DNA of 58,953 nt, taken from Minisyncoccota bacterium. Lineage in GTDB: Bacteria > Patescibacteriota > Minisyncoccia > 2-02-FULL-40-12 > GWA2-44-9. Of this stretch, positions 4,000 to 58,381 are shown in pieces. The position numbers were made by a program, and so were the translations under genes. Position 1 is the stretch's first letter, and each line of letters opens with the position of its first letter. The notes beneath the pieces were generated by a model. The model ran no database searches, was not told the DNA's origin, and saw only the letters and a list, made by a program, of their open reading frames with translations. The DNA lies in assembly GCA_035583445.1 (NCBI GenBank), contig DATEYD010000041.1, positions 1-58,953 of the forward strand. The letters are read 5' to 3'.

Positions 4000-4000
4000 C

Positions 4001-31395: not shown

Positions 31396-31452
31396 ACCTT
31401 GTCCACACAAAATCGTTTACAAAAGGCCGCCCTCGTATATGGTACGGGCAGT

Positions 31453-40506: not shown

Positions 40507-41898
40507 TTATTCGAATGAATCATACACACGTTGCCGGATCATGGTGAGCTCGTTCTTGAGTGGCTCGTCGGCCTGTTCTTCTCTTTTAATCTTCTCGCAC
40601 GCATGGATCACAGTGGAGTGGTCGCGACCACCAAGTTTTTGGCCAATATCTGGGAAGGAAAGCTTAATTTCCTCACGAAGTAAATACATGGCGACTTGGC
40701 GTGGCTTTACCACTTCCTTCTTCCGGCTTCGCTTGGTGAGGTCGGCTGGGGAAATATTATAGAAGTCCGCAACCGTCTTCAGAATTATCTGCGGTGACGT
40801 CTTTCGGTATGGGACGGCGAGGTATGCGTTGAGGATGTTTTTGGTCTCCTTAAGGTCGGGTACACGGTTGTAGATTTGAGAAAGCGCGATAACCCGGTTG
40901 AGGGCCCCCTCGAGTTCTCGGATGTTCTTTTGTATGTGGGTGCCGATATACGAAAGCACCTCATCAGAGAAGACAACGCCTTTTTCTGCGGATTTAGCCT
41001 TTAGGATAGCGACCCGTGTTTCGAAATCCGGAGCGTTGATGTCCGCGAGCATTCCCCCAACCAAGCGTGACAAGAGGCGTTCTTCGATTGCTGGAATTGC
41101 TGTGGGTGGACGGTCGGATGTCATCACGACCTGGCGATTCTTGTTGTGGATTTCATTAAAGATGGTGAACACGATTTCCTGCATCTTCTCTTTTCCTGCG
41201 ATGAATTGGATGTCATCAATAATAAGAAGGTCGAGACCCGAGTAAAGGTTCTTGAGGTCTTCGATGGTGCGGTTGCGGATTCCCTCGACAATCGCCGATA
41301 CCATCTTTTCGCCTGATGCGTACAACACCTTCCGCTCAGGAGCCTTTTCAAGCACCGCGTTGCCGATTGACTGCACGAGGTGGGTCTTCCCTAACCCCAC
41401 CCCACCATAAATGAAAAGCGGGTTATACGGCTTCGGGAGGTTCCCGACGATGCACTGGGAAACGCTTTGCGCACACGCGAACGCCAATTCATTTGCCGAC
41501 CCCACGATAAAGGAGTTGAATGAATACTTTTTGTTAAGTGATGTCGTCTTATCGATCTCCTGGTTCTGCTCCCCGCTCGTCTGCTCCTGGAGGTCTCGAT
41601 CGACGATCATCTTCGAGAAGTCTTGGCGGATCGGTTCCGGCTTCGGCTGCCCGATAATATAGCGAACCTCACGGATCTCATTGGAGAGTTTCCGGATCGA
41701 GTAGATGATTTGCTTGTTAAACTTATTCTCGAGCCACTCCTTCACAAACCCATTCGGCACACTGACCGTGACCGAATTCTGATCCCGAGAAACGATCGAT
41801 GTATTCTTAAACCAGGTTGTGAAGTGCGCTTTTGAAAGCGAAAGCTCCATATCACAGAGCACCGCCTTCCAGATTTCTTCGGGTGTTGCCGGGAGCAT
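40507..41898 (-). CDS. dnaA: chromosomal replication initiator protein DnaA
   Basis: 463 aa. Walker [11 protein letters not shown], Walker [11 protein letters not shown]-terminal DNA-binding ...[11 protein letters not shown]. Confidence 0.96.
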
Positions 41899-42061: not shown

Positions 42062-42199
42062 ATGAAGATTACACGCTACCGACCAAAGAAGACGAAGCGA
42101 CAGCGGAAGCACGGCTTTCTGAGCCGAATGCAAAGCAAAACCGGACGAAACGTGCTCGCCCGGCGCCGCGCAAAAGGCCGAAAGCGGCTGACGATCTAG
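42062..42199 (+). CDS. rpmH: 50S ribosomal protein L34
   Basis: My own translation: [45 protein letters not shown] (45 aa). Below the ORF-track cutoff. Classic position upstream of rnpA. Confidence 0.9.
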
Positions 42200-43442: not shown

Positions 43443-43918
43443 TGCATACTGGCGCCATGCAAACCCCGGAACAGAGCCTCGATACCGTCGTCCGAACCCT
43501 CCTAGGGTTCTTTGCTATCCCCTACGACGATGTAGTTGTTCATGCCGCGGAGCCCGGAGGCCGATTGACGGTGTCCCTGACCGCACCCGAAGGGAATGTG
43601 CTCATCGGCAAAGGCGGCCAGAACCTCAAAGCGCTCGAACACGTCGTTCGGATGATGATGGCTCGCCAGCACCCCGAACAAGCGCGCGGGCTCATCGTCG
43701 ATATTAACGATTACCGTCAGGAGATGGCCACGGAACTCGCAACAAGCACGCGCGTGATTGCGGAACGAGTGCGTCAGACGCGCCAACCCGAGGCATTACG
43801 TCCGATGACCGCGTACGAACGGCGGATCGTGCACACTGAATTGGCATCCTTTTCTGATTTGACCAGCGAGAGCGTCGGACAAGACCCGCATCGGCGGGTT
43901 GTGATCCGGCCCCTCTAG
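43442..43918 (+). CDS. jag: Jag/KhpB-like RNA-binding protein (KH plus R3H)
   Basis: ATG overlaps the yidC stop (TGATG). ATG at 43457 is an alternative. LIGKGGQNLKALEHV (KH) and AYERRIVHTEL (R3H). Confidence 0.8.
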   Translation: MHTGAMQTPEQSLDTVVRTLLGFFAIPYDDVVVHAAEPGGRLTVSLTAPEGNVLIGKGGQNLKALEHVVRMMMARQHPEQARGLIVDINDYRQEMATELATSTRVIAERVRQTRQPEALRPMTAYERRIVHTELASFSDLTSESVGQDPHRRVVIRPL

Positions 43919-45045
43919 AAGCTCACCATATGGACGCGGCGATCGAAGAGATCGATGAACGCCGCACGAGTGCCGGACGAGGAGATGACCGGGGAATACA
44001 CACCAACCCGGTCTTCGTGAGTTGGAATAGTATCAATCAGAACACCCGATCCCGCATCAATACTCGCGAGGGTGTCATTTGTGGCCGCAAGGGCAGATCC
44101 CTGACTCACGGAGGCGTCCTGCGGAATGCCACACACTAACGATGCACCATCAGGCGCCCATGCGCACTTGCGGGCGCTCGTCTGTTCGCTCATGGTCCGC
44201 TGCAACAAGGTCGACGGATCCAGCACGGCAACGACCCGCTTGGCGGATTGATCGAAGTACGTGGCAAGGACGGATCCCTGCCGAGAGATGGTGAATTCGA
44301 GATTTTGCTTATTCGAAAGTAAGGTGGCGATATCCCCATCGAGCGATACCACAACAAGATCGGTTGATGAGGTGCCCGTCCTCCAGACCGTGAGTATGAT
44401 CGCCTGCTCCCCTTTCCATGCCATGTCCGTGACGCCAAGACGGGTCCGGAGGATCGTCCGCTCGTCCGATCCGTCGACATCCGCAACTCGTAGGACTGTG
44501 CCGGAATCAGTTCCTGGTCCGATGTATGCGATCCGCGAACCGTTAGAAGAAACCGCCAGATGATCGGCGTTCTCGAGGGTATGCCCGCTCCCCGTCCGAT
44601 AGTCGTAGAGCTGGTAGCGTCGGCCAGAGCGTGCATCCTCGATGATCAGGAATGCCTGTTCAGCGCCAGGAACCCAGATGCCATCGGTGAATCCAGGCAC
44701 CGCGATGTCGGATATAGTCCGAATGACCCCCGTCCGAAGATCCCCCTCGTACGCGCGGCCGGATTGCACGTCGAACCAGCGCACCGAGTCGCGGCTGAGC
44801 CCGGGTGCGAGGCCGGTAGCGGCGGTGTCGGAGAGAAGCGTGTCAACGACGCGTGGAGCATCACGTGGTTCGGGCGTGGAAGAACCATCGACGTGCTCGG
44901 CGATGGTGGCGGTTCCGCCATTCCCCAAGAATGCTCCCACAATAACAGCGAGCGCGACGAACGGAATGACGAGGAGTAGAAGAAACGTTGAGCGCCGCAA
45001 GCTCGAGCGTTGGGAAAGGAGGTTCGGTTGTTGTCCGAGAAACAT
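43915..45045 (-). CDS. membrane-anchored beta-propeller-like (TolB/WD40-like) protein, unknown function. Last gene of the T4SS-like operon.
   Basis: 376 aa. N-terminal TM FLLLLVIPFVALAVIVGAF. Repetitive beta-strand-rich sequence with recurring ..DG/SG.R.A... blades. Confidence 0.5.
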   Translation of the reverse strand: MFLGQQPNLLSQRSSLRRSTFLLLLVIPFVALAVIVGAFLGNGGTATIAEHVDGSSTPEPRDAPRVVDTLLSDTAATGLAPGLSRDSVRWFDVQSGRAYEGDLRTGVIRTISDIAVPGFTDGIWVPGAEQAFLIIEDARSGRRYQLYDYRTGSGHTLENADHLAVSSNGSRIAYIGPGTDSGTVLRVADVDGSDERTILRTRLGVTDMAWKGEQAIILTVWRTGTSSTDLVVVSLDGDIATLLSNKQNLEFTISRQGSVLATYFDQSAKRVVAVLDPSTLLQRTMSEQTSARKCAWAPDGASLVCGIPQDASVSQGSALAATNDTLASIDAGSGVLIDTIPTHEDRVGVYSPVISSSGTRAAFIDLFDRRVHMVSF

Positions 45046-45047
45046 GG

Positions 45048-46028
45048 CTAGGTGGCGAACGCGATGTCTTGGGTCGTCGACATGATGGCGATCTCTTCTT
45101 GGGTGTTTTGCAGAATCTCCTCCTCGCGCTGGCGAGACAGAATGTCGACCTCGTAGTCTTCGACGATCGCGTAGCTCTCCTCGGCCTTCTGGAGTAGGTA
45201 TTGCACTTCGAAACGCTGGTAGCGAGCGAGCGCGTCCACGACTGGGTCATAGCCGGCAAACGCGAGGCGGGCGTTCCGATGCGCCGTGTATTGCTTGAGC
45301 ACAACCCGAACGACCTGACCAAGATACATAGGAAGGGCGTCAATGACCGGGACGAGCTCAGCGATCTGTACGGCAACCGTTTCCGCGATGAATGTGCGGA
45401 TATAGGCTTTATACCGATAGGCAACTGTATTCGGAATCGGTTCGACTTTTGGAGCGCCTGGGTCGCGCAGTGCCGGTCCCAGCCGTTCTAGGAGCGCCCG
45501 ATATTCCTTCTCGTACCTCTCCCGTGCTTTGTGAATGGCCTCGACGCCTCGATTGATGCGATCGATTCGCCGTGCGATGAACACGCAGATGAGCGGGATC
45601 GCCCAGGAGATGAGCCAGCCGGCGTCAACGATACTGAGGAGATCCGCGAACCCTGCAATCAGCAGGGCTCCCAGGAAAAGGAACAGCGAGGTTCGTCGCG
45701 TTTGACGGTGAAGATTGCGTCGCTCTTCTTCCCGTTCACGCGACTGCCGAAGATATATCTGGTTCGCCTTCTGGTACCGACGGTATGCAACGACGGTATC
45801 CTGCCGCGCCTCCTCGTAGGTCAGGGCCTCGCGCTGTCGTGGTTGCGCCTGTGCTCGCCGGCTCCGTGGTTGTTGAACAAGGGGTGCTGCGGTTGTCAGT
45901 ACAGGTACCCGAGGTGCCGTCGGAGACGGTGCGGGTTGTGCGACCGATACCGAAGGCGCGACATCCCGAAGCGCGGGCGAAGGCTCGCGTGGTGCCGCTT
46001 GAGGGTTTGCTTGGGGTGCGTCTGCCAT
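45048..46028 (-). CDS. hypothetical two-TM protein with a Pro/Ala-rich N-terminal region (T4SS-like operon)
   Basis: Met at 46028 lies 2 nt after the VirB4 stop (the ORF opens at 46058). TMs LFLFLGALLIAGFADLLSIV and LISWAIPLICVFIA. Confidence 0.5.
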   Translation of the reverse strand: MADAPQANPQAAPREPSPALRDVAPSVSVAQPAPSPTAPRVPVLTTAAPLVQQPRSRRAQAQPRQREALTYEEARQDTVVAYRRYQKANQIYLRQSREREEERRNLHRQTRRTSLFLFLGALLIAGFADLLSIVDAGWLISWAIPLICVFIARRIDRINRGVEAIHKARERYEKEYRALLERLGPALRDPGAPKVEPIPNTVAYRYKAYIRTFIAETVAVQIAELVPVIDALPMYLGQVVRVVLKQYTAHRNARLAFAGYDPVVDALARYQRFEVQYLLQKAEESYAIVEDYEVDILSRQREEEILQNTQEEIAIMSTTQDIAFAT

Positions 46029-46030
46029 GG

Positions 46031-47776
46031 CTATGAAGTCTGCCCTACTTTTGCCCACTCTTGTTTCGCTTTTTCGATCTCCATCAACTGGCGCGGATCG
46101 GACGTGATGATCTGATCTTCAGCGTACGATGCCAGGATCCGAATGCCGACGTGGTTCGAACCGAGGAAGAAGAGTCCGAAACCGACCCGAGCCTCGAGGA
46201 GGTAGTATTTCTCCGAATCGGTGAGATTGAACGTCTGTTGGATGACCTCGATCGCAGCCGGCGATTGCTTCAGGAGCAGTTGGAGCGACGAATTAGTGAC
46301 AATCGCCTTGCCTTGCGCCGTGTTCATGAAGTCCGGGATGTCCTGGGAGATCGTGGTGAGGCCGCAGTAGTACTTGCGGCCTCGTTTTGCGATGTTGAAC
46401 AGGAAGTCGGCGCCGACCGGGAACTTCATGACCCACCACGCCTCATCGACGACCAGCATGCGCCGCTTCCGTTCCCGGCGGATCTGCGTCCACACGTAGC
46501 TGAGCACGGTGTACATGGCGATAGGACGGAGCTCGTCCTCGAGGTCGCGGATGCCGAAGACGATGAGCTGGTTGTCGAGGGGCACATTGGTCGGGTTGTT
46601 GAGGAATCCCGCGAACGACCCGGTGGTGAACTTCTGGAGGCGCGTTGCCAATCGCTCCGCGCCGGCCATGCCTTCCAGGACGCTCTGAAGATCGGAAAGC
46701 ACAGGTGGCGGGAGACTCGAGAAGTCCTGGTCAGGGACGATATCCTTGATGGCATACGTCTGGGTGATCGCCTGGTCCAGGATCGATTCTTCCTCGGGCG
46801 TCACCTCCCCTCCCATGAGGAGACGCATCAGCCCCGACAGGCCGAGCACATGGGAAGTGAACACATCGCTCCACGACTCCTCGTCCTTGGGCGTCGGCAG
46901 ATCGAATGGATTGATGTGCTGATCGGAATTGATCGAGATCTTGACGTTCGTGCCGCCGACCGTGTCGGAAAGGTACTTGTACTCGTCTTCGGGGTCGATG
47001 ACGATGACCTGGGTGTCGAACATCAGCGAACGGAGGATTTCAAGCTTGATCGCATAGCTCTTGCCTGCGCCGGACTTCGCGAAGACCACCATGTTCGCGT
47101 TCTCGAGGGAGAAACGATCGAACAGAACGAGCGAGTTGTTCGAGGTGTTCAATCCGTACAGGATGCCGCTGTTCGAGGTGAGGTCGCTAGAGACGAACGG
47201 GAATGTGCTCGCGAGCGGCTCCGTGTTCATCGGGCTCAGGGCAAGCAGACGGTCGGCGCAGAACGGCGCGGTCGTGAGGAATCCCTCCACCATGCGGAAC
47301 GTCGCCTGTTTGGTGATGACCAGCTGACCCTCGAGGACGCCGGCGACCGACTTTTCCAGGTCATCCAGTTCCCTCACGCTGTTGCCGTAGAGCGTCAGGT
47401 ACAGGCCGAGCTTGAAGAATCGCTCGGTCCCCTGCTGTAGCGAGTCTCGGAGGGCTTCGATGTCCGACACGGCCGTCTCGAGCTGCGGGTTGCGCACCTT
47501 GCCGGCCGATTGCTCCTCCATGATCTGCGCTTGGAGACGGGCGAGCTGGTCGCGGAGCTGCTTGAGGACGTCGCCGGTAGGCTGGGATTGGATGAACAAG
47601 GCGATATCGAGAACCCGGTCAAGGTTGATGATCGGAGAGAGCCAACTGGTGTTCAGGTAGCGCGGATATGACCCGACGAACAGCGTTCGCGCGTACTTGT
47701 CCCCGATCTGAATGTAGCTGGGCGTTACCGCCAGTGCGCCGGGGGCAATGAGTTGCGTGAGTTCGTCGGTCGTCAT
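46031..47776 (-). CDS. virB4: VirB4/TrbE-type type IV secretion ATPase (C-terminal ATPase part)
   Basis: 581 aa. Walker A FAKSGAGKSY, Walker B MLVVDEAWWVM, ...GLTTISQD... ATGA overlap with the upstream ORF. Confidence 0.8.
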   Translation of the reverse strand: MTTDELTQLIAPGALAVTPSYIQIGDKYARTLFVGSYPRYLNTSWLSPIINLDRVLDIALFIQSQPTGDVLKQLRDQLARLQAQIMEEQSAGKVRNPQLETAVSDIEALRDSLQQGTERFFKLGLYLTLYGNSVRELDDLEKSVAGVLEGQLVITKQATFRMVEGFLTTAPFCADRLLALSPMNTEPLASTFPFVSSDLTSNSGILYGLNTSNNSLVLFDRFSLENANMVVFAKSGAGKSYAIKLEILRSLMFDTQVIVIDPEDEYKYLSDTVGGTNVKISINSDQHINPFDLPTPKDEESWSDVFTSHVLGLSGLMRLLMGGEVTPEEESILDQAITQTYAIKDIVPDQDFSSLPPPVLSDLQSVLEGMAGAERLATRLQKFTTGSFAGFLNNPTNVPLDNQLIVFGIRDLEDELRPIAMYTVLSYVWTQIRRERKRRMLVVDEAWWVMKFPVGADFLFNIAKRGRKYYCGLTTISQDIPDFMNTAQGKAIVTNSSLQLLLKQSPAAIEVIQQTFNLTDSEKYYLLEARVGFGLFFLGSNHVGIRILASYAEDQIITSDPRQLMEIEKAKQEWAKVGQTS

Positions 47777-48414
47777 GATGCGGGGGTCTTTGCAGGTTCG
47801 GGCAGGTTGGGGTTGTAGAGGTCGCGCAGGAGCTTCGAGATCTCGGCATCGTTCAGCACGCTGCCGGTCAATCCCATACCCGACAGCCCGCCGATGATCA
47901 GATCGGCGCGTTGCATCATCTGCGTCTTTGCGACCGCAAGCTGTTCGGGAGAGAGCGTCGAGGTGGTGACAGCCTTCTTCTTGCCCAAGAACGACTGGAA
48001 GAATCCCCCACCCTTTTTTCCCGTGGGTAATTGAACGGTGAACGGCAGCACCACATAGAACTGTTTGGACATGATGTTCGCAAGCTCGGAAAGCTCGCCG
48101 ACGAAGCGCGCGTATTCACCGGCCTGGACCTTCAGGAGTTCGTTCGTTTGCTTCTCTGCGGCGCTTCGGGCCAATGCGATGTATGTCGATACGTCGAATC
48201 GGCGGGACTGTATGACGATCTGGAACGGGAAATCTAACGAATTCAGGAATCCCTGGAACTGCTGGATGATCGCGTTCTGTTCGTCGGTCGAACGCAGCTC
48301 GAAGTTGATGGCGCTGATGCGGACAATGGCGCGCAAGGTGCTGTCCTTCAGGGTGATGACGCCGCTCCCGATGTCTGCGACGGGGACAAGCTCGGTTGTT
48401 GAGGGGGGTGGCAT
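47773..48414 (-). CDS. protein resembling the VirB4 N-terminal domain (apparent split VirB4)
   Basis: 213 aa. ...VPVADIGSGVITLKDSTLRAIVRISAINFELRSTDEQNAIIQQFQGFLNSLDFPFQIVIQSRR resembles the start of Gram-positive-type VirB4 proteins. Confidence 0.45.
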   Translation of the reverse strand: MPPPSTTELVPVADIGSGVITLKDSTLRAIVRISAINFELRSTDEQNAIIQQFQGFLNSLDFPFQIVIQSRRFDVSTYIALARSAAEKQTNELLKVQAGEYARFVGELSELANIMSKQFYVVLPFTVQLPTGKKGGGFFQSFLGKKKAVTTSTLSPEQLAVAKTQMMQRADLIIGGLSGMGLTGSVLNDAEISKLLRDLYNPNLPEPAKTPAS

Positions 48415-48416
48415 GG

Positions 48417-48725
48417 TTAGGGCTTCGGGAATTGCTCAGGGACCGTCTGCTTCGGGGTGAACTGGTACCGCTTGGCGCCGAAGATGTACGCGAGGAAGTA
48501 TGCGAAATAGTTCAGGAATGGCTGGTCATTGACCTTCAGGAACGCGAGAGCCGCGAAGAATCCTGCCGTCAGGAGCGCCAGAACGACGAAGAACAATCCG
48601 GGCAAGAGCATATACTCGACAACAACCATGCTAATGCCACCTGCGACGAAGAGGAACTGCTTGAGCGTGAACGGCCCAACGACCTTCGTTTCCGTCTCGA
48701 TGAATTGAGGAACCTGGAATCTCAT
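48417..48725 (-). CDS. PrgI/VirB3-like two-TM protein
   Basis: 102 aa. MRFQVPQFIETETKVVGPFTLKQFLFVAGG..., then two TM helices. Sits directly upstream of VirB4, as VirB3/PrgI genes do. Confidence 0.55.
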   Translation of the reverse strand: MRFQVPQFIETETKVVGPFTLKQFLFVAGGISMVVVEYMLLPGLFFVVLALLTAGFFAALAFLKVNDQPFLNYFAYFLAYIFGAKRYQFTPKQTVPEQFPKP

Positions 48726-49270
48726 GACGTCTTGCGTAGATCAATGATATTACGAGACGGCTGATTTGGCACTGGCGGGACGTCGGTCGTCGATTCGGAC
48801 TGCGGTGGTGTCGCTGAGGATTCCGGGGCAGCGGTCGTCATCAAGGGCGGGATCTCGCGAAGCTCGGTAGTCTCCCCCGCTTCGGGGTCGAGGACGATGT
48901 CGGGAACCTCCTCAGGGGTGATTGACAGGTATGGCACAACAAGCTGGCGGATGCTCCCCGCGAGGCTCGGAGCCTGTTCCTGGGAAAGGCCGATACGCTG
49001 GAAGAGCTCGTCGAGCGATTCCGGCTTCACCTCACCAAGCGCGGTCAGCATGACTGTCTTGGCGACTGCGGTTCGATAATTCTCCGGGAAGAGTCCACTC
49101 TGCTCCAGGTCGGCGATGAACTGGGCGGTTTCGGGTGCGACTAGGAATTTTCGGAACTCATCCGGGAGCGCGACGAAGCGATTGTAGATGTCCATCTGCC
49201 CGGCCTCATCACGGCCGATGATCGCGTTCTCGAGCGGGCTGTATTGGAGGTATTGCTGGATGCTTTCCAT
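48722..49270 (-). CDS. hypothetical protein with a Pro/Thr/Ser-rich tail (T4SS-like operon)
   Basis: 182-aa ORF. 4-nt overlap downstream. No motif recognised. Confidence 0.45.
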   Translation of the reverse strand: MESIQQYLQYSPLENAIIGRDEAGQMDIYNRFVALPDEFRKFLVAPETAQFIADLEQSGLFPENYRTAVAKTVMLTALGEVKPESLDELFQRIGLSQEQAPSLAGSIRQLVVPYLSITPEEVPDIVLDPEAGETTELREIPPLMTTAAPESSATPPQSESTTDVPPVPNQPSRNIIDLRKTS

Positions 49271-49273
49271 GGT

Positions 49274-51916
49274 CTAAGGGGTGGGTGGTGCTGCTGGCGC
49301 CGCCGCCGCTGGTTGCGGACTCGGGGGCTGCCCGGACGATTGGAACGTTGGTTTTTCGGTGATCGCGCGCAGCTCCTGGTCCACGAGCTCGATCTGCTGC
49401 TGGATGCCCCGGACATTCGCCGTCGGGTTCGCCTGCAGTGTTGATCGTCGCTGACTCTCCAATTGCGCCTTCTGCGCTGACAGTTGCGCCACGAGGGTCT
49501 GGATTTGGGATTCAGCCTGCGTGATGCGGGCCAGTTGCTGGGCTGATGCGTTCGCCCGCATTTCCGCGAAGCTCGAGACATTGTACAAGAGCCGCGTGTA
49601 CCTGTTGTTGAGCTCCTCAAGTCCCTGCTGCTGCCGCCATTGGATGCCCATGGTTTGCTGGTAATGATCCTCGGCTTTGAGAATGTCCGTAGCATTGAAC
49701 GTCCGCGCTTCCCGCGAGATCGCCTCATCCACGGTCAGCGGTGTCTTGCCGTCCGCCCCCATGATTAACTTCAGATCAGCGCCCACGATGATGGCCGGCA
49801 CCTTGTTCTTGCCGGTCTTGGCACTGTCGACGAATTTGCCGGCCTGCTTCTTGTCGGTGATCAGACGGAGGAATGACTTGAGATCGTCAACGCCGTCGTA
49901 CTTCCGTGTGCCGGCGTCTTTCTGTAGTTGCTCATCCCGTTGCTTGATGAAGCCCTGCAGTGCCGCCGCGGACACTTTCGCGTAGCGTTCCTGGAGGTCC
50001 ATCAGTTCGCTGCTCGTGATCTTCTGTGTCTTGAGCAGAATATTCCCAGCCGCGATCGCGGTCTCATTCGTGACCGGTAGTTTGCCTGTTCCTGTTACGA
50101 GTTTGTGCAGCTCGTTTGCCTGCTTCGTCTGCAGGTCGGTCAACGCTTGTTCTGCCTTCGCACGAGCTATCTGCGCGTCGTGGAGTTCGATGACGGAGGC
50201 TCTTCCCGCACTCATTGCGTCGCTGGCACGGGCCTCCGCTGCCGTTGCTTGTTCAATGCGGATCCTCGCACGGTCGAGTTGCTTTTGAAGCTGCTGGTCC
50301 AAGCGTTTGGTGCGGTCATCAATACGTGATTGCAGGTATTTCTGGCGAGCTTCGCCCCCAGCGACCATCGTCCGGACGCCTGCCTCAAGCCGCTCCTGGC
50401 GCGCAGCGAGCGGCTTCTGTACGACGCGCTCGTACCGTTCTTTTGCGCCCTCTCGCAATCCCCGGGTGGCCGTGGTCGCGCCGGTGATGGCGCCGAGGCC
50501 GCGACCGACGGTACGGACGCCGAAGCCGGTCTTCTCGCTGACGCCCAGCGCGCCCCCGATGGTGCCGAACACCGATCCGGCCAAGGGGCTCAAGCGGAAT
50601 GCGAACTTCGTGACCATTCCGGCGCCCCCGATGAAGATGAACGCAGCGATGATCGTGAAGAATGCGGTGCCGAACAACGAAGAGATGAGCGGAAGATCAT
50701 TGATATCGGCCCCAGCCGAGATCAATGTGCCCTGCGTGCTCAGAACGAAGAGCCCCAGATAGATGACCATGAGGTACAAGGGGCCGAACGCACAAATGCC
50801 AACAAGGTTACCGAACCATCGCATGAACTGCGGCTTGGCGGGCGGTACGGCGAGCGCGAAGAATGCGGCCGGCGAGACCGCAAGCAAAAACCACACGATC
50901 GGGATACGGACGACCATGAACAGTACGATAGCGATGAAGGAGAGTGACATGACGAGAAGCAGGAAGAAGCGAACGAGTACGTGCGAGAACTGGGAGAGCG
51001 ACGTACTGAGGCCGGAGGAGCCATACACCGCATCAAACGCAGCAAGCGCTTCATCGCTCGCCTGGGCGCGCCACACCGTCTCAGCGATTCTATTGCCGAT
51101 GTTCTTGAGTAACGACTGGTGCTCATCCAAGTATTTTGTGGCGGCAGCGCCTTGTGCTTTCAGTGCCTTTGTGTAGCAATCGATGGGTAGCTGGTTCGCC
51201 TGTAGGCAGGACTGAAGAACAGTCAAGGCACCACGCGATCCTGCGCCTTCAGCGCTATCCTCGGCTGCCTTTGTCTGCCAGGCCACGACAGCCAAGCGTT
51301 GTCCTGGGGGCAATTTATCCAGCGGGATCGAACCACTTGGTGCCGCAAGACTCGGAACCTTACCCGAAGTCCCGGCGGCAACCCCAATGACCTGCAATTG
51401 GGTTGCTATTTGTGCGCCCACATCTTGCGGCATAAACCCAAGGACGAGTTGCGTGGCGCGATTTCCGGTCCACACGATTGTCTGGCCGACTGCAAGGCTC
51501 AGGTTAATCAGGATCGCAGCAGCGATGAACATCGCAATCGATTGACGCGCGTGGAATGCATTGGGCTTCAATGTGTTGAAGATCGTGCCGAACGAGATAA
51601 TGATGAGAACGACTACGAAGAACATCGAACACAAATCACGGATCCAATCCCACATTTTGTATACTGTGGCCCCGCCATACGTAATGTTCCATGAAATTAC
51701 ACTTTGCAGATTTGTCCCAAAGAATTTAAGAAGACTGATAAGGAGGTTCGAGAACGCATCGAATATCGCGGCGCCAATGTCCATGAAGACGCTGCCGAGC
51801 GTTTTACTCGTCTCTTGCATCATACTCAACAGTCCCGCGTGAGCAGGGATTGGAATGAGGGCGACGGTCAGAACGATGACCAGGGCCGACGGGATGATGA
51901 AACGCCGGAGGTCCAT
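49274..51916 (-). CDS. VirB6/TrbL-like polytopic membrane protein with a roughly 400-aa C-terminal coiled-coil extension
   Basis: Met at 51914-16 lies 1 nt after the upstream stop (the ORF opens at 51964). At least 8 predicted TM segments, then a Q/A/K/E-rich heptad-like region and an APAAPPTP tail. Confidence 0.55.
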   Translation of the reverse strand: MDLRRFIIPSALVIVLTVALIPIPAHAGLLSMMQETSKTLGSVFMDIGAAIFDAFSNLLISLLKFFGTNLQSVISWNITYGGATVYKMWDWIRDLCSMFFVVVLIIISFGTIFNTLKPNAFHARQSIAMFIAAAILINLSLAVGQTIVWTGNRATQLVLGFMPQDVGAQIATQLQVIGVAAGTSGKVPSLAAPSGSIPLDKLPPGQRLAVVAWQTKAAEDSAEGAGSRGALTVLQSCLQANQLPIDCYTKALKAQGAAATKYLDEHQSLLKNIGNRIAETVWRAQASDEALAAFDAVYGSSGLSTSLSQFSHVLVRFFLLLVMSLSFIAIVLFMVVRIPIVWFLLAVSPAAFFALAVPPAKPQFMRWFGNLVGICAFGPLYLMVIYLGLFVLSTQGTLISAGADINDLPLISSLFGTAFFTIIAAFIFIGGAGMVTKFAFRLSPLAGSVFGTIGGALGVSEKTGFGVRTVGRGLGAITGATTATRGLREGAKERYERVVQKPLAARQERLEAGVRTMVAGGEARQKYLQSRIDDRTKRLDQQLQKQLDRARIRIEQATAAEARASDAMSAGRASVIELHDAQIARAKAEQALTDLQTKQANELHKLVTGTGKLPVTNETAIAAGNILLKTQKITSSELMDLQERYAKVSAAALQGFIKQRDEQLQKDAGTRKYDGVDDLKSFLRLITDKKQAGKFVDSAKTGKNKVPAIIVGADLKLIMGADGKTPLTVDEAISREARTFNATDILKAEDHYQQTMGIQWRQQQGLEELNNRYTRLLYNVSSFAEMRANASAQQLARITQAESQIQTLVAQLSAQKAQLESQRRSTLQANPTANVRGIQQQIELVDQELRAITEKPTFQSSGQPPSPQPAAAAPAAPPTP

Positions 51917-51917
51917 A

Positions 51918-53609
51918 TCAATCCTGGATTCCTGCGGGGCACGCGGCGATGAGTCCGCCGCCATCCGTACGGAGTGCCCCGGCAGGAGTGATTACATCCA
52001 CCGAGATGGTGGTCGATCCGAGGATCACAATACGGTCGTCGTAGAACGGGCTCGTCTTGCAGTTGCTTCCTGATGAGCACAGGGTATCGAGAACGGTCCG
52101 ATAGCTTACGCCCGCGGCGATTTGGTTGCTCCCTGCTGGCGAGAAGAATTCGGGGTGCTGTGCGATCGTATTCGCGATGGCAGTCGCAACAATGGGGAGG
52201 ATCGCACCTTTGAACGACGCGTCGTTCGTGATGCAGATGCATTCTGGGTTGCCACCAGTACATGCCGGGTCATCAATATCCCCTGATCCGGGTACGGGTG
52301 CGGGGGTTGGTATCGGGGTTGGGGTCTGAGTCACCCGATCGTCATCCCACGGACTGAGGCTAAAACGGAGCGGGATCGGTTGAGATGCGAAACTCAGCAT
52401 CCGTACCGCGATGCGCGCCCCGATGTCGTCCATGATCTGCTTGCCTGCGTTCGCTTGTTGAACCAATGAATCCGTCTGAGTCTTGATGGAATCCGTATAA
52501 ATATTCTGGAGGGCGCCCGGTGCCTGGACGAGTGAACCGTCAGCGACACAATCTTTGTCCCCGTTCGGGCCAGTGACGCACGATTGGTATGCGCCGAGGA
52601 AACCGCCGCCTGCAACCAACTGGTATTGCCGTACCTCAGAAAGAGCCGCCACCTGCTTTTCGAATTCCGCGTCGGCAAGAGAGATGAAACCGGCCGGATA
52701 ATTCTGCTGTTCACTGACGAGTCCGAGGAGGTCGAATCCGCCATTCGCGATGAACGAGTCAGCGGTAGCGATGGCTGCGGGATTGAAGTCTTCCGGTAGC
52801 GTGCATGCAGCGCGAAGCTCGAACGGCGTATCCCCGTCGACCGAGAGCTCATTCGGGTCAATATCGGGTGGATCGGTCCGATAATTCTCGGGTACGTCAT
52901 AGTAATCAAGTACTGCATCTTTGAAATACGGGCAGATCGGAGTGTATACGAGCATGGTCCAAAGCCGGCGTTGCGCCATGCGGTAGGGTGCCTTGTTCAG
53001 CGTATCCAACCAGTCGGTCGCAACCGCCGGTCCCCCGTCGGGGCCCATCTGTTGGATCATCTTGTCGATGCGGTCAGTCAGGTCCTTCAGTGAGGAGTCC
53101 ACGACGCACTGGGCAATATAAGACTGCTTCGCGGATTGCTTGAGAGACTCTTTTGCAATTTCGCTGAAGTTCGCCTCAACGGGGATATTGCACTCAGGAA
53201 GCGGGTTGTCAAAGCAGTTGCCGAGGACACATATCTGTTGGACGCCTGCGAGCTTGCAATATGTATATTTCGTTAGGATATCGCTCACCATGTTATTCAA
53301 CGCATTGGTGATCGAGTCCTCTAATCGAGCGGCAGCGGCATCAAGTCCGCCTTGGATGAGCTGGAGGAAGTCCTGCGCGATACAAAATTCCTTCTCGTAG
53401 TCTTTGTCGAGGCCATACTGCTGGAGGATGTATGAGACGCTCAGTAACGACTCGACGGGTTGGTCAGGATTGATCACTCCGGACTGGCCGAGCAATATCT
53501 GCTGGGCCGTATCGTATTGTGCGCGTGCGCGCTGAGCCTCACTGAGTCCCTGGCCAAGCATCAACGCCAGGATTCCGATAGCGACGACAATAGTAAATAC
53601 TCTCCTCAT
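51918..53609 (-). CDS. secreted Cys-rich protein (563 aa), unknown function
   Basis: Signal peptide MRRVFTIVVAIGILALMLGQGLSEA. Many paired Cys. PT linker TQTPTPIPTPAPVP. Confidence 0.5.
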   Translation of the reverse strand: MRRVFTIVVAIGILALMLGQGLSEAQRARAQYDTAQQILLGQSGVINPDQPVESLLSVSYILQQYGLDKDYEKEFCIAQDFLQLIQGGLDAAAARLEDSITNALNNMVSDILTKYTYCKLAGVQQICVLGNCFDNPLPECNIPVEANFSEIAKESLKQSAKQSYIAQCVVDSSLKDLTDRIDKMIQQMGPDGGPAVATDWLDTLNKAPYRMAQRRLWTMLVYTPICPYFKDAVLDYYDVPENYRTDPPDIDPNELSVDGDTPFELRAACTLPEDFNPAAIATADSFIANGGFDLLGLVSEQQNYPAGFISLADAEFEKQVAALSEVRQYQLVAGGGFLGAYQSCVTGPNGDKDCVADGSLVQAPGALQNIYTDSIKTQTDSLVQQANAGKQIMDDIGARIAVRMLSFASQPIPLRFSLSPWDDDRVTQTPTPIPTPAPVPGSGDIDDPACTGGNPECICITNDASFKGAILPIVATAIANTIAQHPEFFSPAGSNQIAAGVSYRTVLDTLCSSGSNCKTSPFYDDRIVILGSTTISVDVITPAGALRTDGGGLIAACPAGIQD

Positions 53610-54520
53610 TGGGTATATGCCGCGTTAATACCCTCGGTTACGCTCGCGAGCAGTCGAATCTGCGTATCGCCGGCAAGCGATGAAAGAACCTGTAAAGCCA
53701 CCAGGCCGCGGACAGGATCACCGTCGATATCGCGGGCATACTGATACTGTCGCTGCAGGGAACGGAAGTATAAGAAGATCTCACGATGCGTTCCCGTCAG
53801 CGCGATGGGGACACGGATCTTCTTGATGCGTGCAACCGCCGACTCAAGGTTCCCGATTTCAGTATCGATGGCGGCTGTATACCGCGCGAAACGTTGGGCG
53901 TCGGTCTCCGGGAGCGATGCGATATCGGACATGGGGACGTCACGAATCGTCTGGATGACCGAGACGAACCCTATCGACGCCGAGGCGAACGCATCTTTGA
54001 GTGCGCGAACGGTCTGCGTGGCGTAGGTCAGCGTTGCGTCTCGCCCGCTCTGGCCAAGAAGCGCCTCATCGGTCGCTATAACCCCCTCCCCCTGCCCCGA
54101 GAGTATGTCGTTGACCAGGTCCTCAAGCGTCTGCGCATACAACGGACTTTCGGGATCCAACTCCCCGGACGACAAGCTGCCAGCTAATAGAAGTGCGGTG
54201 AGTTCAGTGAGATTCCGATTCGAGGTCAGCAGGTCGTTCGGTCCCGGCACGGTCGGATCGTGCCCAGAAAGCACCTCTTCCCCATCCAAATATCCGTCCC
54301 CGTCGGTGTCGGGGTTCTTGTAGTTGGTCTGCCAATACGTCTCTTCGGAGTCCGGAAGCCCATCGCCGTCCTGATCCTTTTCGAAGTCGGCGATGAGATC
54401 TGAAATGCCGGAAATGTTCGCCTGGGAGTCCCGATCCGTGAATAATCCGCCGAAACGCCAAATCGACGCCAACGCGCCCACACACAAAACGGCGAGCAAG
54501 ACCTTAATTCGCGTGCTCAT
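53606..54520 (-). CDS. secreted protein with thrombospondin-type-3-like calcium-binding repeats. First gene of the T4SS-like operon.
   Basis: Signal/TM VLLAVLCVGALASIW. DQDGDGLPDSEE and DTDGDGYLDGEE repeats. Confidence 0.5.
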   Translation of the reverse strand: MSTRIKVLLAVLCVGALASIWRFGGLFTDRDSQANISGISDLIADFEKDQDGDGLPDSEETYWQTNYKNPDTDGDGYLDGEEVLSGHDPTVPGPNDLLTSNRNLTELTALLLAGSLSSGELDPESPLYAQTLEDLVNDILSGQGEGVIATDEALLGQSGRDATLTYATQTVRALKDAFASASIGFVSVIQTIRDVPMSDIASLPETDAQRFARYTAAIDTEIGNLESAVARIKKIRVPIALTGTHREIFLYFRSLQRQYQYARDIDGDPVRGLVALQVLSSLAGDTQIRLLASVTEGINAAYTQ

Positions 54521-54557
54521 CTTTTCTAGAGTTTAGCACGCTTACCGATCCGCGCTG

Positions 54558-55322
54558 CTAGCCGATAGTGGATAGCCGGAGCCAGTCTTCGGGGCTCAGT
54601 TCCTGTGGTCTGGCAGCGGGTGGAATCCCTGCTGCGGAGAGGGTTTCGACGGGGATCGTCGATGTCAACTGCTTCCGCCTGTGTCCAAAAGCCGCTCGAG
54701 CCATGGCGAGCGCCTGTTTCCGGTCCCCGCTTGGGCCATCTGTCCGACGTTCAAGACGTACGACCGCCGAGTCCACCTCAGGAATGGGACGGAAACTTCC
54801 CCGCGAGACCCGCATGACCATCGATGGCCGGGCGTACAACTGCACCCCGAGCGCCAGGAGGTTCATCTGGGGCGCCTGGGCCATCAGGCGGCGGGCGACC
54901 TCCTCCTGGACCATGACCACGGTCAACGCGGGCTGCCAATCCTCGAGTGCGACCTTGATGAAATGAGAGGTTAGGTAGTACGGAATGTTACCGACCAACT
55001 TCCAGGATCCTTGTACGAGGACTGACGGATCGAACTTCAGAATATCGCCCTCGATCACCGAGGCGTTCGAGTATGGCGCGAGCAGTGACCGAAGCGATTC
55101 GAGGAGGCGATGGTCCTTCTCGACCGCGATGACCCGCGCGCCGCTCTTCGCGAGCCGTTCGGTGAGCGCGCCGGTCCCCGGCCCGACCTCGACGACGACG
55201 TCTTCGGCGTCCAGCGCAAGCTCGTCGGCGATGCGATCCAAGATGCCCTGGTTGACGAGCCAGTTCTGGCCGAGCCGTTTCGTTGCGGATGGGAGTCTAG
55301 ACATCGTAGTCGACATCCTCAT
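54558..55322 (-). CDS. rsmA: 16S rRNA (adenine1518/1519-N6)-dimethyltransferase
   Basis: LGQNWLVNQGILDRI, VVEVGPGTGALT, NIPYY. Start ambiguous (Met at 55322, 55316 or 55304). Overlaps the pcrA end. Confidence 0.88.
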   Translation of the reverse strand: MRMSTTMSRLPSATKRLGQNWLVNQGILDRIADELALDAEDVVVEVGPGTGALTERLAKSGARVIAVEKDHRLLESLRSLLAPYSNASVIEGDILKFDPSVLVQGSWKLVGNIPYYLTSHFIKVALEDWQPALTVVMVQEEVARRLMAQAPQMNLLALGVQLYARPSMVMRVSRGSFRPIPEVDSAVVRLERRTDGPSGDRKQALAMARAAFGHRRKQLTSTIPVETLSAAGIPPAARPQELSPEDWLRLSTIG

Positions 55323-57258
55323 CGTACTCCTGGAGCCTGAGACGTTGCCATGCCACGAGGTGCGCGGGCATTTCGTCGAGGAATCGCGACGGGATGTTCG
55401 TCTGACGCGTGCCGAAGATGATGCGCGACCGCGCGAGCGTCACGTACAGACGCTCTTTCGCACGGGTGATGGCCACATAGCAGAGGCGGCGCTCCTCTTC
55501 CATCTCGTGCGGATCCCATACCGCCCGGCTGTGCGGGAACAACCCCTCCTCCATGCCGACGATCACGACGATCGGGAACTCCAGCCCCTTGGCCGCGTGC
55601 ATGGTCATGAGGGTCACCGCTGCCTCCCCTTCGACAAGTCGGTCCGTGTCCTGCAGGAGCGCGACCTCCTCGAGGAAGCGCGCGAGGCCCCGGGGGCCCT
55701 CCTCGTCATATTTCGCGGCGACCGTCAGTAACTCGCGGACGTTCTCCATACGCTCATCCGCTGTTTCCCCCACCTCCGCCTTCGACGAATGCAGATGCCG
55801 CTCGTAATCGGTGCGCTTGATGATGTCGCTAATCAATGCGCGCACGGTTTTCGTCTGTGCGGTCTTCTGAAGTCGGATAAGCAGCGCGTGGAATTGGGTG
55901 AGCGCTCTGCCGGCACGTGAGGTGGGCACATGTTCGGCGGCGATGGTCTTGATGCTGGCAACCAGGTCGGTTCCAGCGGTCGCGAGGATCGGTTCGAGGG
56001 TTGCGGGACCGATACCGCGAGCGGGCACGTTCGCGATGCGCTCCAGGGATACCGAATCGGCAGGGTTGGCGACCAGCCGGAGGTAGGCGAGGACATCCTT
56101 GATCTCCCGGCGCTCGTAGAACCGGATGCCCCCGACAATGCGGTACGGAATGCCGCTGCGCACGAGCTGCTCTTCCAACGCGCGGGATTGGGCATGAGTT
56201 CGGTACAGGACGGCGCAGTCCGAAAGCGTATGGTGCGGGGCGAGCCCTCCTAGGAGGCCGACGACGTACTGCGCCTCGTGACGCTCGCTGATGCACTCGA
56301 CGGCAGTGAGCGGTTCCCCTGCCCCGTTGTCGGTCCAGAGCTCCTTGGGGATCTGGGCAGTGTTGTTCGAGATGATCGCCTGCGCTGCCGCGAGGATGTT
56401 CTTCGTCGAACGATAGTTCTGCTCGAGGAGGACGATCTTCGCTTCCGGATAGTCCTTGCGGAAGTTCAGGATGTTGCGGATGTCCGCCTGGCGGAATCGG
56501 TAAATAGATTGGGCGTCGTCGCCGATACAGAACAGATTCCGGTTCCGAGAAGCCAGGAGCGTGATGAAAGTGTACTGGTCATGACTCGTGTCCTGGTATT
56601 CGTCCACAAGCAAGTAGTGCCAGCGGTCCTGGTAGCGAGCAAGGACGTCGGGATGTTCGCGGAAGATCCGGACCGGCAGCATGATCAGATCGCCGAAATC
56701 GACCGCGTTCATTGCCGCCAGGCGGGATTGGTACGCATCGTATGCGCGCGCGAGGACCTTCTCCTTCCAGCCCTTCGGGGTGTACTCGTGTGGGGCGACG
56801 AGTGCGGTCTTCAATTCCTGCACCTGCGCCAACAACGCGGCCGGATTGTTCTGCTTCGGATCGTACCCGAGGTCTGCGACGACCCGCTTCATCAAACTCT
56901 GCTGGTCCGCGGCATCGAGGATGGTGAACGACGACGCACGGTTCGCATGCACTGCCTCTCGGCGCAGGATGCGCAACCCAATCGCATGGAACGTGCCAAT
57001 GACCGGTTGGTGTCCCGCCTTCCACTGACGGCCGAGGAGCGCGGCGACGCGTTCTTTGATCTCTCCCGCTGCCTTGTTGGTGAACGTGACCGCAAGAATG
57101 TGTTCGGCGGGTATGCCGGATGCGATGAGGTGCGCGACCCGGTGCGTCAGCGCGCGTGTCTTGCCTGACCCGGGACCGGAAATGACCAAGACCGGTCCTT
57201 CCGTTGCCGTAACGGCCTCGACCTGCTTTGTGTTGAGGTCGGCAAGGATGTGTTCCAC
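55297..57258 (-). CDS. pcrA: ATP-dependent DNA helicase PcrA/UvrD (short form, 653 aa)
   Basis: GTG start. LNTKQVEAVT, Walker A GPGSGKT, LLVDEYQDTS, VTLMTMHAAKGLEF, YVAITRAK. Confidence 0.92.
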   Translation of the reverse strand: MEHILADLNTKQVEAVTATEGPVLVISGPGSGKTRALTHRVAHLIASGIPAEHILAVTFTNKAAGEIKERVAALLGRQWKAGHQPVIGTFHAIGLRILRREAVHANRASSFTILDAADQQSLMKRVVADLGYDPKQNNPAALLAQVQELKTALVAPHEYTPKGWKEKVLARAYDAYQSRLAAMNAVDFGDLIMLPVRIFREHPDVLARYQDRWHYLLVDEYQDTSHDQYTFITLLASRNRNLFCIGDDAQSIYRFRQADIRNILNFRKDYPEAKIVLLEQNYRSTKNILAAAQAIISNNTAQIPKELWTDNGAGEPLTAVECISERHEAQYVVGLLGGLAPHHTLSDCAVLYRTHAQSRALEEQLVRSGIPYRIVGGIRFYERREIKDVLAYLRLVANPADSVSLERIANVPARGIGPATLEPILATAGTDLVASIKTIAAEHVPTSRAGRALTQFHALLIRLQKTAQTKTVRALISDIIKRTDYERHLHSSKAEVGETADERMENVRELLTVAAKYDEEGPRGLARFLEEVALLQDTDRLVEGEAAVTLMTMHAAKGLEFPIVVIVGMEEGLFPHSRAVWDPHEMEEERRLCYVAITRAKERLYVTLARSRIIFGTRQTNIPSRFLDEMPAHLVAWQRLRLQEYDEDVDYDV

Positions 57259-57260
57259 GG

Positions 57261-57297
57261 TATCGTGGTGGACCTCGTCTGTGTTAGTTGGAACCAG
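57261..57297. repeat. direct-repeat copy 1 (pcrA leader)
   Basis: tatcgtggtggacctcgtctgtgttagttggaaccag. Compare copy 2 at 57734-57776. Confidence 0.6.
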
Positions 57298-57310
57298 GTT
57301 ATGGAAGTTC

Positions 57311-57709
57311 TTATCTCCTGGATAGCCACTCCTGCAATGGCGTAGCTATATCGTCAATTACATCATATTCTATCACTAAATTAGCAATCCCTTTGGTTGT
57401 ATCTTTTATTTGTGTTCCTTTTTTCGCTGTAACAATTACTTTTTTATTTAATGCGAAAGCGATGCCAGCCTCTATTGCTCGTCCTGTCGGCTTATCGGTC
57501 ATATCAATCAACAGTGCATCTGATTTGCTGATTTCATCTTTAGCTCGTTGCATTAACTCTTGCGGGTCGTCAAACATTTGTTTGTAATTTTCAACGTCGC
57601 GAATAAAACAAAAATCTTCAAAACCAGCCTCTTTAACGAGTCCGCAAAGACGTTCTATCTCTTTTTTATTTTCTCCGTTTTTGAAACTGGCTGTTATAAA
57701 GAGTTTCAT
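57311..57709 (-). CDS. nucleoside 2-deoxyribosyltransferase-like (NDT/LOG-like Rossmann) protein in an AT-rich islet
   Basis: Met at 57709 (MKLFITASF...). ...DALLIDMTDKPTGRAIEAGIAFALNKKVIV resembles the D-x-G-T-x-x-E-x-G NDT motif. The local 60-nt line counts to about 37% GC. Confidence 0.55.
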   Translation of the reverse strand: MKLFITASFKNGENKKEIERLCGLVKEAGFEDFCFIRDVENYKQMFDDPQELMQRAKDEISKSDALLIDMTDKPTGRAIEAGIAFALNKKVIVTAKKGTQIKDTTKGIANLVIEYDVIDDIATPLQEWLSRR

Positions 57710-57776
57710 AGATATACGTAGATACAAGTAGTTTATCGTGGATTTGGTGGGCCTCGTCCGCGCCAGTTGGAACCAG
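57710..57776. repeat. direct-repeat copy 2 (composite)
   Basis: The left part matches the leader in front of the Nudix gene. The right part, tatcgtggatttggtgggcctcgtccgcgccagttggaaccag, matches copy 1. Confidence 0.6.
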
Positions 57777-57817
57777 ACAATTAAAGAGTTGTTATCTTGG
57801 CAAGAACTCGGGTTGGT

Positions 57818-58333: not shown

Positions 58334-58381
58334 CGTAGATGTACGTAGATACGAATAGTTTAAAGTGGATTTAGTGGACCC
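58334..58381. repeat. direct-repeat copy 3 (Nudix leader plus the 3' end of tRNA-Ala)
   Basis: cgtagatgtacgtagatacgaatagtttaaagtggatttagtggaccc. Compare 57710-57752. Confidence 0.55.

Follow-up and report, generated by a model that had tools for sequence, protein, structure and literature searches.

The 58,953-nt contig DATEYD010000041.1 of a Minisyncoccota bacterium (assembly GCA_035583445.1), analyzed here at its full length and referred to as the window, carries nine consecutive open reading frames (ORFs) on its minus strand, running from position 54520 down to 43915 and designated g1 to g9. This locus raises the question of which apparatus the nine genes encode, whether it is mobile, and which of its parts are new. 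An initial annotation, made from the sequence alone, had described a type IV secretion system (T4SS)-like operon with the gene set of no known T4SS subtype. The latter claim was not upheld, as the locus is a further example of the Patescibacteria-clade T4SS already described (PMC12102498, PMC10633639), and what is new in it are its lineage-specific parts.

The assignment was based on a FATA-type VirB4 (by similarity), an adjacent TrsD, a PrgI/VirB3 protein, VirB2-like pilins together with a VirB1-like hydrolase, and an origin-proximal site with no relaxase in the window. The locus was read as a chromosomal, vertically inherited and non-conjugative T4SS of the Patescibacteria clade, derived from or sister to the monoderm MPF_FATA machinery, with its closest VirB4 relatives in metagenome-assembled genomes (MAGs) labelled Yanofskybacteria or Paceibacterota. 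The probability of this reading was put at roughly 80%. The new elements are five positionally conserved accessory genes, the propeller protein g9, fusions joining g1 with g2, a structural model of g2, and the occurrence of the g4 tail on VirB6.

Operon, inheritance and the split VirB4 motor

The nine-gene operon of the initial annotation was recovered in full, with all ORFs in place (Table 1). Overlaps of 4 nt of the ATGA type were found at three junctions (g1/g2, g4/g5 and g6/g7), while gaps of 3 nt separate g3 from g4, and gaps of 2 nt each occur at g5/g6 and g8/g9. Long overlaps of 47 nt (g2/g3) and 28 nt (g7/g8) appear only with the longest ORFs; with internal ATG starts, at Met17 of g3 and codon 11 of g8, gaps of 1 and 2 nt are obtained, respectively. 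These internal starts were preferred because they agree with the N-termini of the orthologues, and the long overlaps thereby vanish. The nine genes form a genuine, tightly packed and translationally coupled operon. Its GC content (0.55–0.63) is the same as in the remaining window, which also contains the housekeeping genes gyrA, ftsH, nusA and ruvB and those for PBP1, trigger factor and tRNA synthetases; the similarity in GC to housekeeping genes had been correctly noted before.

Synteny was analyzed in 80 related genomic loci, with ORF-level inspection of 23. Among those of the 80 loci with sufficient flanking sequence, most retained the order uvrD-ksgA-g1-g2-VirB6-(g4)-PrgI-TrsD-VirB4-(g8)-g9-jag-yidC-dnaA-dnaN, with VirB4 identity across the syntenic loci ranging from 80% down to 55%. 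No relaxase, type IV coupling protein (T4CP) or integrase was found among the ORFs tested in the 59-kb window. The initial annotation had reported the same three absences; for VirD4, however, the absence applies to the window only, as most Patescibacteria genomes encode T4CP homologues, generally remote from virB4, and almost none encode relaxases (PMC12102498). Based on the conserved gene order, the native GC and the lack of mobility genes in the window, the nine-gene block is resident and vertically inherited. A reading as an integrative conjugative element (ICE) was rejected on the same grounds, in line with the earlier suggestion of a resident, non-conjugative apparatus and with the published view.

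The position next to jag and close to the origin was also substantiated. The jag ORF is convergent with g9 and overlaps it by 4 nt, dnaA is located at 40507-41898, and candidate origin regions lie 1.9–3.5 kb from the end of the operon. Further genes of the origin region in the window are dnaN, rpmH (42062-42199), rnpA, yidD and yidC. A scan of the window for DnaA boxes performed no better than chance.

The ATPase g7 comprises the middle and C-terminal domains of VirB4. It matched the CD1110-family VirB4 model of NCBIfam with 348 bits (cutoff 325) over model positions 189–733 of 752, and the Pfam families P-loop_TraG, AAA_10 and DUF87 were matched as well. When a VirB4-family profile (alignment A1) was compared with the PDB, the best solved relative was 4AG5, the VirB4 C-domain of the Firmicute Thermoanaerobacter (1.3e-49), and the Gram-negative TrwK followed at 3e-7. 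The VirB4 call of the initial annotation was thus correct. By sequence, g7 is classified as a Gram-positive CD1110-type VirB4, grouped with the Patescibacteria VirB4 proteins by similarity. More than 8000 homologues were recorded; the best listed are 67–96% identical and approximately 580 aa long, and those with a named source carry Patescibacteria-group labels only, e.g., Yanofskybacteria and Paceibacterota.

The preceding gene, g6, is TrsD-like and equivalent to a free-standing VirB4 N-terminal domain, as the initial annotation had supposed. Its NCBIfam matches were VirB4_plasma at positions 104–232 (7e-9), CD1110 at positions 13–118 (9e-6) and, below cutoff, TrsD (1.6e-4), so that g6 and g7 cover complementary parts of the VirB4 models. 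A separate TrsD-like ORF of about 215 aa was observed just before VirB4 in about 70 related loci. Together with the length of about 580 aa of the listed g7 homologues, this indicates that the split is not an artefact. Orthologues of g6 bear the precomputed Pfam family PF26593 (TraC-like), while a TrsD-family profile gave nothing meaningful against PDB sequences.

Two variants of these genes were encountered in related genomes. In locus L042 (5145-7292), one ORF of 715 aa matches TrsD and VirB4 in frame and is either a TrsD-VirB4 fusion with a deletion of about 80 aa or an assembly artefact. In genome L082 (116-3439 and 10395-14123), UvrD (1107 aa) and VirB4 (1242 aa) both contain inteins with LAGLIDADG endonuclease domains.

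Membrane core, surface proteins and pilins

The PrgI/VirB3-like call for g5 proved sound, as its Pfam score lies above the gathering cutoff (GA; Table 1), and g5 orthologues were present in 69 related loci. The polytopic protein g3 has about seven or more predicted transmembrane (TM) segments, followed by a hydrophilic coiled-coil C-terminal region of about 400 aa. Its orthologues have 6–10 predicted TM segments and are always located upstream of PrgI-TrsD-VirB4. This topology, the long hydrophilic C-terminal region and the constant placement ahead of PrgI are compatible with an 'extended VirB6', which g3 probably represents.

Genes g4 and g8 evolve fast and are not traceable by tblastn; they were followed at ORF level in the 23 loci mentioned above. 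A soluble g4 equivalent of about 165 aa was found between VirB6 and PrgI in most of them. The C-terminal tail, with the consensus N-[IV]-[IV]-[DN]-L-R, is present in 46 of 50 separate g4 orthologues, and in seven of the nine motif-checked loci with no separate g4, the VirB6 orthologue itself ends in the motif. Within the window, NIIDLR occurs only once. A hidden Markov model (HMM) test for fusion of the whole g4 domain, beyond the tail, to VirB6 gave weak support. It is probable, as judged from these sequence patterns, that g4 is a detached cytoplasmic C-terminal module of VirB6 carrying a docking peptide. No Pfam domains were found in long variants of either g4 or g8 or in most of the extra small genes of related clusters.

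At the upstream end of the operon, the calcium-binding TSP3 repeats recognized earlier in g1 were supported by Pfam TSP3_bac with 25.3 bits (GA 25). The only PDB match of a g1-family profile was the calcium-binding repeat region of Bap. A further domain of about 200 aa was predicted to be helical in a low-confidence AlphaFold2 model built from six close homologues (predicted local distance difference test, pLDDT, 41; no fold search was made). A g1 orthologue stands immediately upstream of g2 in 51 related loci.

The secreted, Cys-rich character ascribed to g2 was likewise found. No sequence match to g2 was obtained in Pfam, NCBIfam or the PDB, even with a 32-sequence profile, and a Pfam scan of all 32 family members yielded nothing. 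When 1.84 billion representative proteins were searched exhaustively with HMMER, only 170 clusters matched g2, with a conserved core at residues ~160-450; an alignment-based search of a database of 5.8 billion proteins gave three matches. An AlphaFold2 model based on a 70-sequence alignment reached a mean pLDDT of 82, with both domains above 90. Foldseek with the whole-chain model returned best E-values of 1.1 (PDB) and 0.15 (BFVD), revealing no structural analogue. The g2 protein is lineage-restricted and confidently modelled, without a structural analogue in the whole-chain search. A lysozyme-like fold was rejected, as no Foldseek match to it was found.

Proteins that join the two were detected elsewhere. 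The related protein P0269 contains a complete g1 over residues 7–306 (hhalign probability 99.9, E 6e-36) and the g2 core at 365–559, and P0156 combines a g1 match (BLASTP, 3e-24) with the g2 core at 391–683. The occurrence of both in one polypeptide marks g1 and g2 as a pair.

None of g1, g2 and g9 was accepted as a VirB8 counterpart. The g2 model had no Foldseek match to VirB8-like structures, g1 was predicted to be all-helical (with low confidence) and g9 is a propeller, while g4 and g8 have no sizeable extracellular domain. In some related genomes, a gene similar to apolipoprotein N-acyltransferase (LNT_N/CN_hydrolase) is located between ksgA and g1 (L012, 2204-3739; L084, 8341-9834). Immediately upstream of uvrD, L084 carries DsbA/VKOR-type genes for disulfide formation (755-5503), of possible relevance to the extracellular, Cys-rich g2.

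In g8, downstream of VirB4, the Pro/Ala-rich N-terminus is variable; it precedes a TM hairpin and a third, conserved segment bearing the motif E-x-I-P...P. The protein had no family match in Pfam or NCBIfam. Nearly all of the loci examined encode, immediately after VirB4, a protein of 130–465 aa with 2–3 TM segments. The beta-propeller suspected in g9 was confirmed at family level, a 33-sequence profile (A3) matching TolB chains in the PDB at ~1e-13 and a WD40 protein at 2e-20. Orthologues of g9 occurred in 51 related loci. In locus L072, a gene with a T4SS-pilin domain lies between g8 and g9, which places g9 within the T4SS gene set.

The link to a second operon at 8982-13957, proposed initially, turned out to be stronger than claimed. 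Four VirB2/TrbC-type pilin genes and a gene whose product combines a pilin-like N-terminus with a VirB1-like SLT lytic transglycosylase are located at 8982-12067, 34 kb from virB4 (Table 1). With these and the core operon, the window encodes VirB1-, VirB2-, VirB3-, VirB4- and probably VirB6-like functions at two loci. A PilB/GspE-type ATPase gene (T2SSE, 404 bits) was also noted at 31399-33126 on the plus strand, flanked by murI and ruvB; the neighboring window genes that were tested included no further type IV pilus gene.

Table 1. Coordinates and identification of the T4SS genes and of the neighboring genes in the window (longest-ORF lengths).
Feature	Coordinates	Strand	Length (aa)	Basis or characteristics
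g1, membrane-anchored extracellular protein, signal anchor	53606..54520	−	304	Ca-binding TSP3 repeats, residues ~47-92
g2, secreted protein, 16 Cys	51918..53609	−	563	modelled all-alpha core ~160-410 and alpha/beta C-terminal domain ~445-563
g3, probable 'extended VirB6'-like polytopic protein	49274..51916 (Met17 start; longest ORF to 51964)	−	896	Pfam TrbL/VirB6, sub-threshold
g4, soluble protein	48722..49270	−	182	~110-aa helical domain, Pro-rich linker, C-terminal N-I-I-D-L-R tail (alignment A5)
g5, PrgI/VirB3-like, two TM segments	48417..48725	−	102	Pfam PrgI, 37.8 bits (GA 27)
g6, TrsD-like, free-standing VirB4 N-terminal-domain equivalent	47773..48414	−	213	NCBIfam matches
g7, VirB4-family ATPase, middle and C-terminal domains	46031..47776	−	581	Walker A KSGAGKS, Walker B VVDEAWW
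g8, small polytopic membrane protein	45048..46028 (codon 11 ATG; longest ORF to 46058)	−	336	position, alignment A6
g9, extracellular TolB-like beta-propeller	43915..45045	−	376	N-terminal TM anchor, invariant Cys pair
T4SS pilin, VirB2/TrbC-type	8982-9344	−		Pfam T4SS_pilin PF18895, 30.7 bits
T4SS pilin, VirB2/TrbC-type	9360-9623	−		PF18895, 38.5 bits
T4SS pilin, VirB2/TrbC-type	9657-9983	−		PF18895, 20.7 bits
T4SS pilin, VirB2/TrbC-type	9980-10342	−		PF18895, 35.4 bits; TrbC PF04956, 34 bits
Secreted protein, C-terminal anchor	10332-10943	−	203	no known family matched
Pilin-like N-terminus fused to SLT lytic transglycosylase, VirB1-like	10919-12067	−		Pfam SLT 34.4 bits, T4SS_pilin 17.3 bits
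ksgA	54558-55322	−		identity from translation; orthologous neighbors carry Pfam RrnaAD
uvrD/pcrA	55297-57258	−		identity from translation; orthologous neighbors carry Pfam UvrD-helicase

Proposed function and competing readings

The function inferred for the locus is pilus building or contact-dependent transport in the service of episymbiotic life. In the mechanism envisaged, a hexamer of the split VirB4 would dock on VirB3 and VirB6 at the cytoplasmic membrane. Through its conserved C-terminal NIIDLR peptide, g4 would engage a partner in the cytoplasm, with TrsD/VirB4 as the most plausible candidate, and link the channel with the motor; g8 would be a small membrane subunit of the translocon, together with VirB6, VirB3 and TrsD/VirB4. 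The g1-g2 pair and the TolB-like propeller g9 would form the wall-spanning or host-facing part, which in other monoderm systems is supplied by VirB8-like proteins and adhesins. Such a machine would polymerize the VirB2-like pilins, aided by the SLT enzyme, and, upon contact, would pass proteins or other molecules between episymbiont and host, rather than conjugate DNA.

A more specific proposal was made for the five lineage-specific genes. They may constitute an undescribed envelope module of the Paceibacteria T4SS, in which an extracellular g1-g2 unit, combining Ca-binding repeats with a disulfide-rich domain of new fold, and the propeller would replace the VirB8/adhesin layer and contact the host, possibly an archaeon, and in which g4 would act as a VirB6 tail coupling the channel to the split VirB4. 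This proposal is tentative, and the odds are considered to be somewhat against it.

Data from other Patescibacteria concern both the importance of the system and its expression. The T4SS cluster of Southlakia epibionticum (SEML1_0006-0019) is essential for epibiotic growth (PMC10633639, Wang et al. 2023, Cell), and the Patescibacteria T4SS was described in a 2025 review as the first T4SS essential for the bacterium carrying it (PMC12857230). No other T4SS is known to be essential to its own carrier. Paceibacteria parasitising methanogens express T4SS pilins at levels that rank with the highest of their secreted proteins (PMC10936435).

Several points weigh against the interpretation of the whole operon as a T4SS of the Patescibacteria clade. 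The topology and position of g3 fit the initial VirB6/TrbL call, but the Pfam TrbL/VirB6 match (E 4e-5, 24 bits) remained below the GA of 25.9, and at E < 0.01 it was found in just 3 of the 35 family members (the window protein and 34 orthologues). No solved VirB6 was matched when the g3-family profile was compared with the PDB, and a VirB8/PrgL (NTF2-like) component gave no sequence match among the nine proteins in Pfam or NCBIfam. Membership of g1, g2, g8 and g9 was deduced from operon packing, conserved position and gene fusions. All g2 homologues examined (three of three) share the same genomic context; as this context is uniform and the housekeeping neighbors are equally syntenic, the loci provide no independent co-occurrence test of T4SS membership. 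Essentiality was established in Saccharimonadia, which have other accessory genes. Finally, g7 was placed in the clade by similarity alone, and the window represents 59 kb of the genome, so a T4CP may lie elsewhere.

The membership of the accessory genes is also where the main rival explanation departs. It limits the secretion system to the VirB6-like protein, g4, PrgI, TrsD and VirB4 and regards g1, g2, g8 and g9 as unrelated envelope proteins held in a frozen origin-proximal synteny, as uvrD, ksgA, jag, yidC and dnaA are. The insertion of the Lnt-like acyltransferase gene between ksgA and g1 in some genomes, the single context of the g2 homologues and the different accessory genes of Saccharimonadia T4SS clusters are consistent with this view. 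It was nevertheless considered unlikely, as ATGA overlaps and 1–3-nt gaps bind all nine genes, and the four proteins in question are all envelope proteins that bracket the core. In addition, a pilin-domain gene is found between g8 and g9 in L072, and g2 is confined to the lineage with this cluster layout.

Less likely still is a DNA-import machine similar to archaeal Ced or Helicobacter ComB, which would feed nucleotides or genes to an organism unable to make nucleotides. A VirB4-family ATPase and pilins with no relaxase or nearby T4CP in the window would suit such a machine, and g7 has a weak similarity to CedB (E 3.9e-12). Also in its favor, the window encodes a putative secreted SNase-type nuclease, and in class ABY1, T4SS genes adjoin competence genes (PMC12102498). 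The CedB similarity amounts, however, to 45.6 bits, where NCBIfam requires 700, in contrast to the match to the conjugative CD1110 VirB4 family, which exceeds its threshold; no ComB or CedA family match was found among the nine operon proteins in Pfam or NCBIfam. Competence in Saccharibacteria needs ComEC and type IV pili (PMC10633639, PMC12857230). Deletion of comEC abolishes transformation, yet comEC, unlike the T4SS genes, is dispensable for Saccharibacteria viability (PMC10633639, PMC12857230), so that the essentiality of the T4SS is not explained by DNA uptake.

A decayed ICE without its former relaxase, coupling protein and integrase is hardly credible, although VirB4, TrsD and PrgI are homologous to genes of Gram-positive conjugative elements. 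The same chromosomal site and gene order persist in most of the far-reaching loci down to the lowest VirB4 identity, the GC is native, and the ORFs are all intact, with tight coupling between them. Neither an integrase nor a flanking tRNA or repeat was seen (no search was aimed at oriT repeats), and the high VirB4 conservation, with 67–80% identity among the closest matches across many Patescibacteria MAGs, points to purifying selection.

Genomic surroundings and comparison with known systems

The stop codon of ksgA is separated from the start of g1 by only 37 nt. The transcription unit may therefore begin further upstream, at uvrD or ksgA, and these two genes may be co-transcribed with the nine-gene operon. 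A consensus scan of the window for promoters and terminators gave no signal above chance.

The GC skew changes its sign at approximately 39–43 kb, and rpmH-rnpA-yidD-yidC-jag are directed away from dnaA. From the skew switch and the gene directions, the uvrD-ksgA-T4SS block (43915-57258, minus strand) is transcribed toward the origin, head-on to replication, and this orientation is retained in related loci. In the 2025 survey of Patescibacteria T4SS genes, origin proximity is treated solely as a gene-dosage effect (PMC12102498).

Elsewhere in the window, a tRNA-Phe(GAA) gene at 22389-22662 (minus strand) harbors a group I intron of 202 nt (Rfam Intron_gpI, 69.6 bits). The 5' exon (22662-22631), the intron (22630-22429) and the 3' exon (22428-22389) were delimited by splice sites inferred from the sequence, and a reading of the sequence places the intron between anticodon-loop positions 33 and 34. 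ARAGORN missed the interrupted gene in the genome and called tRNA-Phe(gaa) on the exons spliced in silico.

A low-GC islet at 57200-58400 (38–43% compared with approximately 60%), beside tRNA-Ala (58374-58447), looks horizontally acquired. It contains a nucleoside 2-deoxyribosyltransferase-like gene (57311-57727; 26 bits, below GA) and a NUDIX hydrolase gene (57818-58333). At the other end of the window, a 226-aa SNase-domain protein with an N-terminal extension is encoded at 992-1672 on the plus strand; judging from its sequence, it may be a putative secreted nucleotide-scavenging nuclease.

When compared with the MPF_T systems (Agrobacterium VirB/VirD4 and R388 Trw), the window shares VirB1-, VirB2-, VirB3-, VirB4- and, weakly, VirB6-like functions. 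In contrast to MPF_T, no VirB5, VirB7–VirB11 or VirD4 was found in the window, the similarity to TrwK is distant, and VirB4 is split into two proteins.

The MPF_FATA systems, represented by trsC-trsD-trsE of pGO1/pIP501, CD1110 of CTn2 and prgH-prgI-prgJ of pCF10, are closer, as VirB4 passes the CD1110 cutoff. The order of VirB3-like protein, TrsD, VirB4 and a small membrane protein presumably mirrors traC-traD-traE-traF of pIP501. As in MPF_FATA systems, the outer-membrane core components VirB7, VirB9 and VirB10 are missing. Unlike MPF_FATA elements, the window contains no relaxase, T4CP or PrgB-type adhesin, no oriT was seen (no search was aimed at its repeats), and no VirB8-like protein was recognized. 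Gram-positive MPF_FATA systems lack VirB2-type pilins, which are present here, and in contrast to the plasmids and ICEs of this class, the locus is chromosomal and vertically inherited.

The closest correspondence is with the Patescibacteria-clade T4SS. In a survey of 3,035 Patescibacteria genomes, 2,425 of 2,474 VirB4 homologues formed a monophyletic clade nested in MPF_FATA (PMC12102498, Quinonero-Coronel et al. 2025, Microb Genom). TrsD was the commonest accessory match, with 1,664 copies adjoining virB4, and PrgI/VirB3, patchily detected VirB6, VirB2-like pilin arrays and, in Paceibacteria, VirB1 near virB4 were reported; the T4SS is sited near dnaA, dnaN, ksgA, rnpA and rpmH (PMC12102498). 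The present locus agrees in its VirB4 of about 580 aa following a TrsD-like gene and PrgI/VirB3, with a VirB6-like protein upstream, and in its PF18895 pilin array, VirB1-like hydrolase, chromosomal origin-proximal site, and lack of a relaxase or nearby T4CP in the window. It differs in that the genes for the pilins and SLT enzyme lie outside the cluster, at a distance of 34 kb.

The accessory genes (the TSP3 protein g1, the Cys-rich g2, g8 and the TolB-like propeller g9) are not those of Saccharimonadia, in which a lysozyme-like SEML1_0006, the 1113-aa SEML1_0007, an NTF2/VirB8-like SEML1_0012 and a second VirB6-like protein are found. TolB, propeller, TSP3, thrombospondin and PD40 are not mentioned in the survey text or in the available supplementary files (PMC12102498).

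Three testable leads emerge from the locus: the g1-g2 fusion pair, the confidently modelled g2 without structural analogue, and the conserved C-terminal peptide carried either by a small protein or by the VirB6 C-terminus. They are candidate parts for host contact and motor coupling, of use to laboratories with Paceibacteria-methanogen co-cultures. The locus itself is a clean Yanofskybacteria/Paceibacteria-like example with a defined nine-gene unit, and the overall picture of the Patescibacteria T4SS is unchanged by it.

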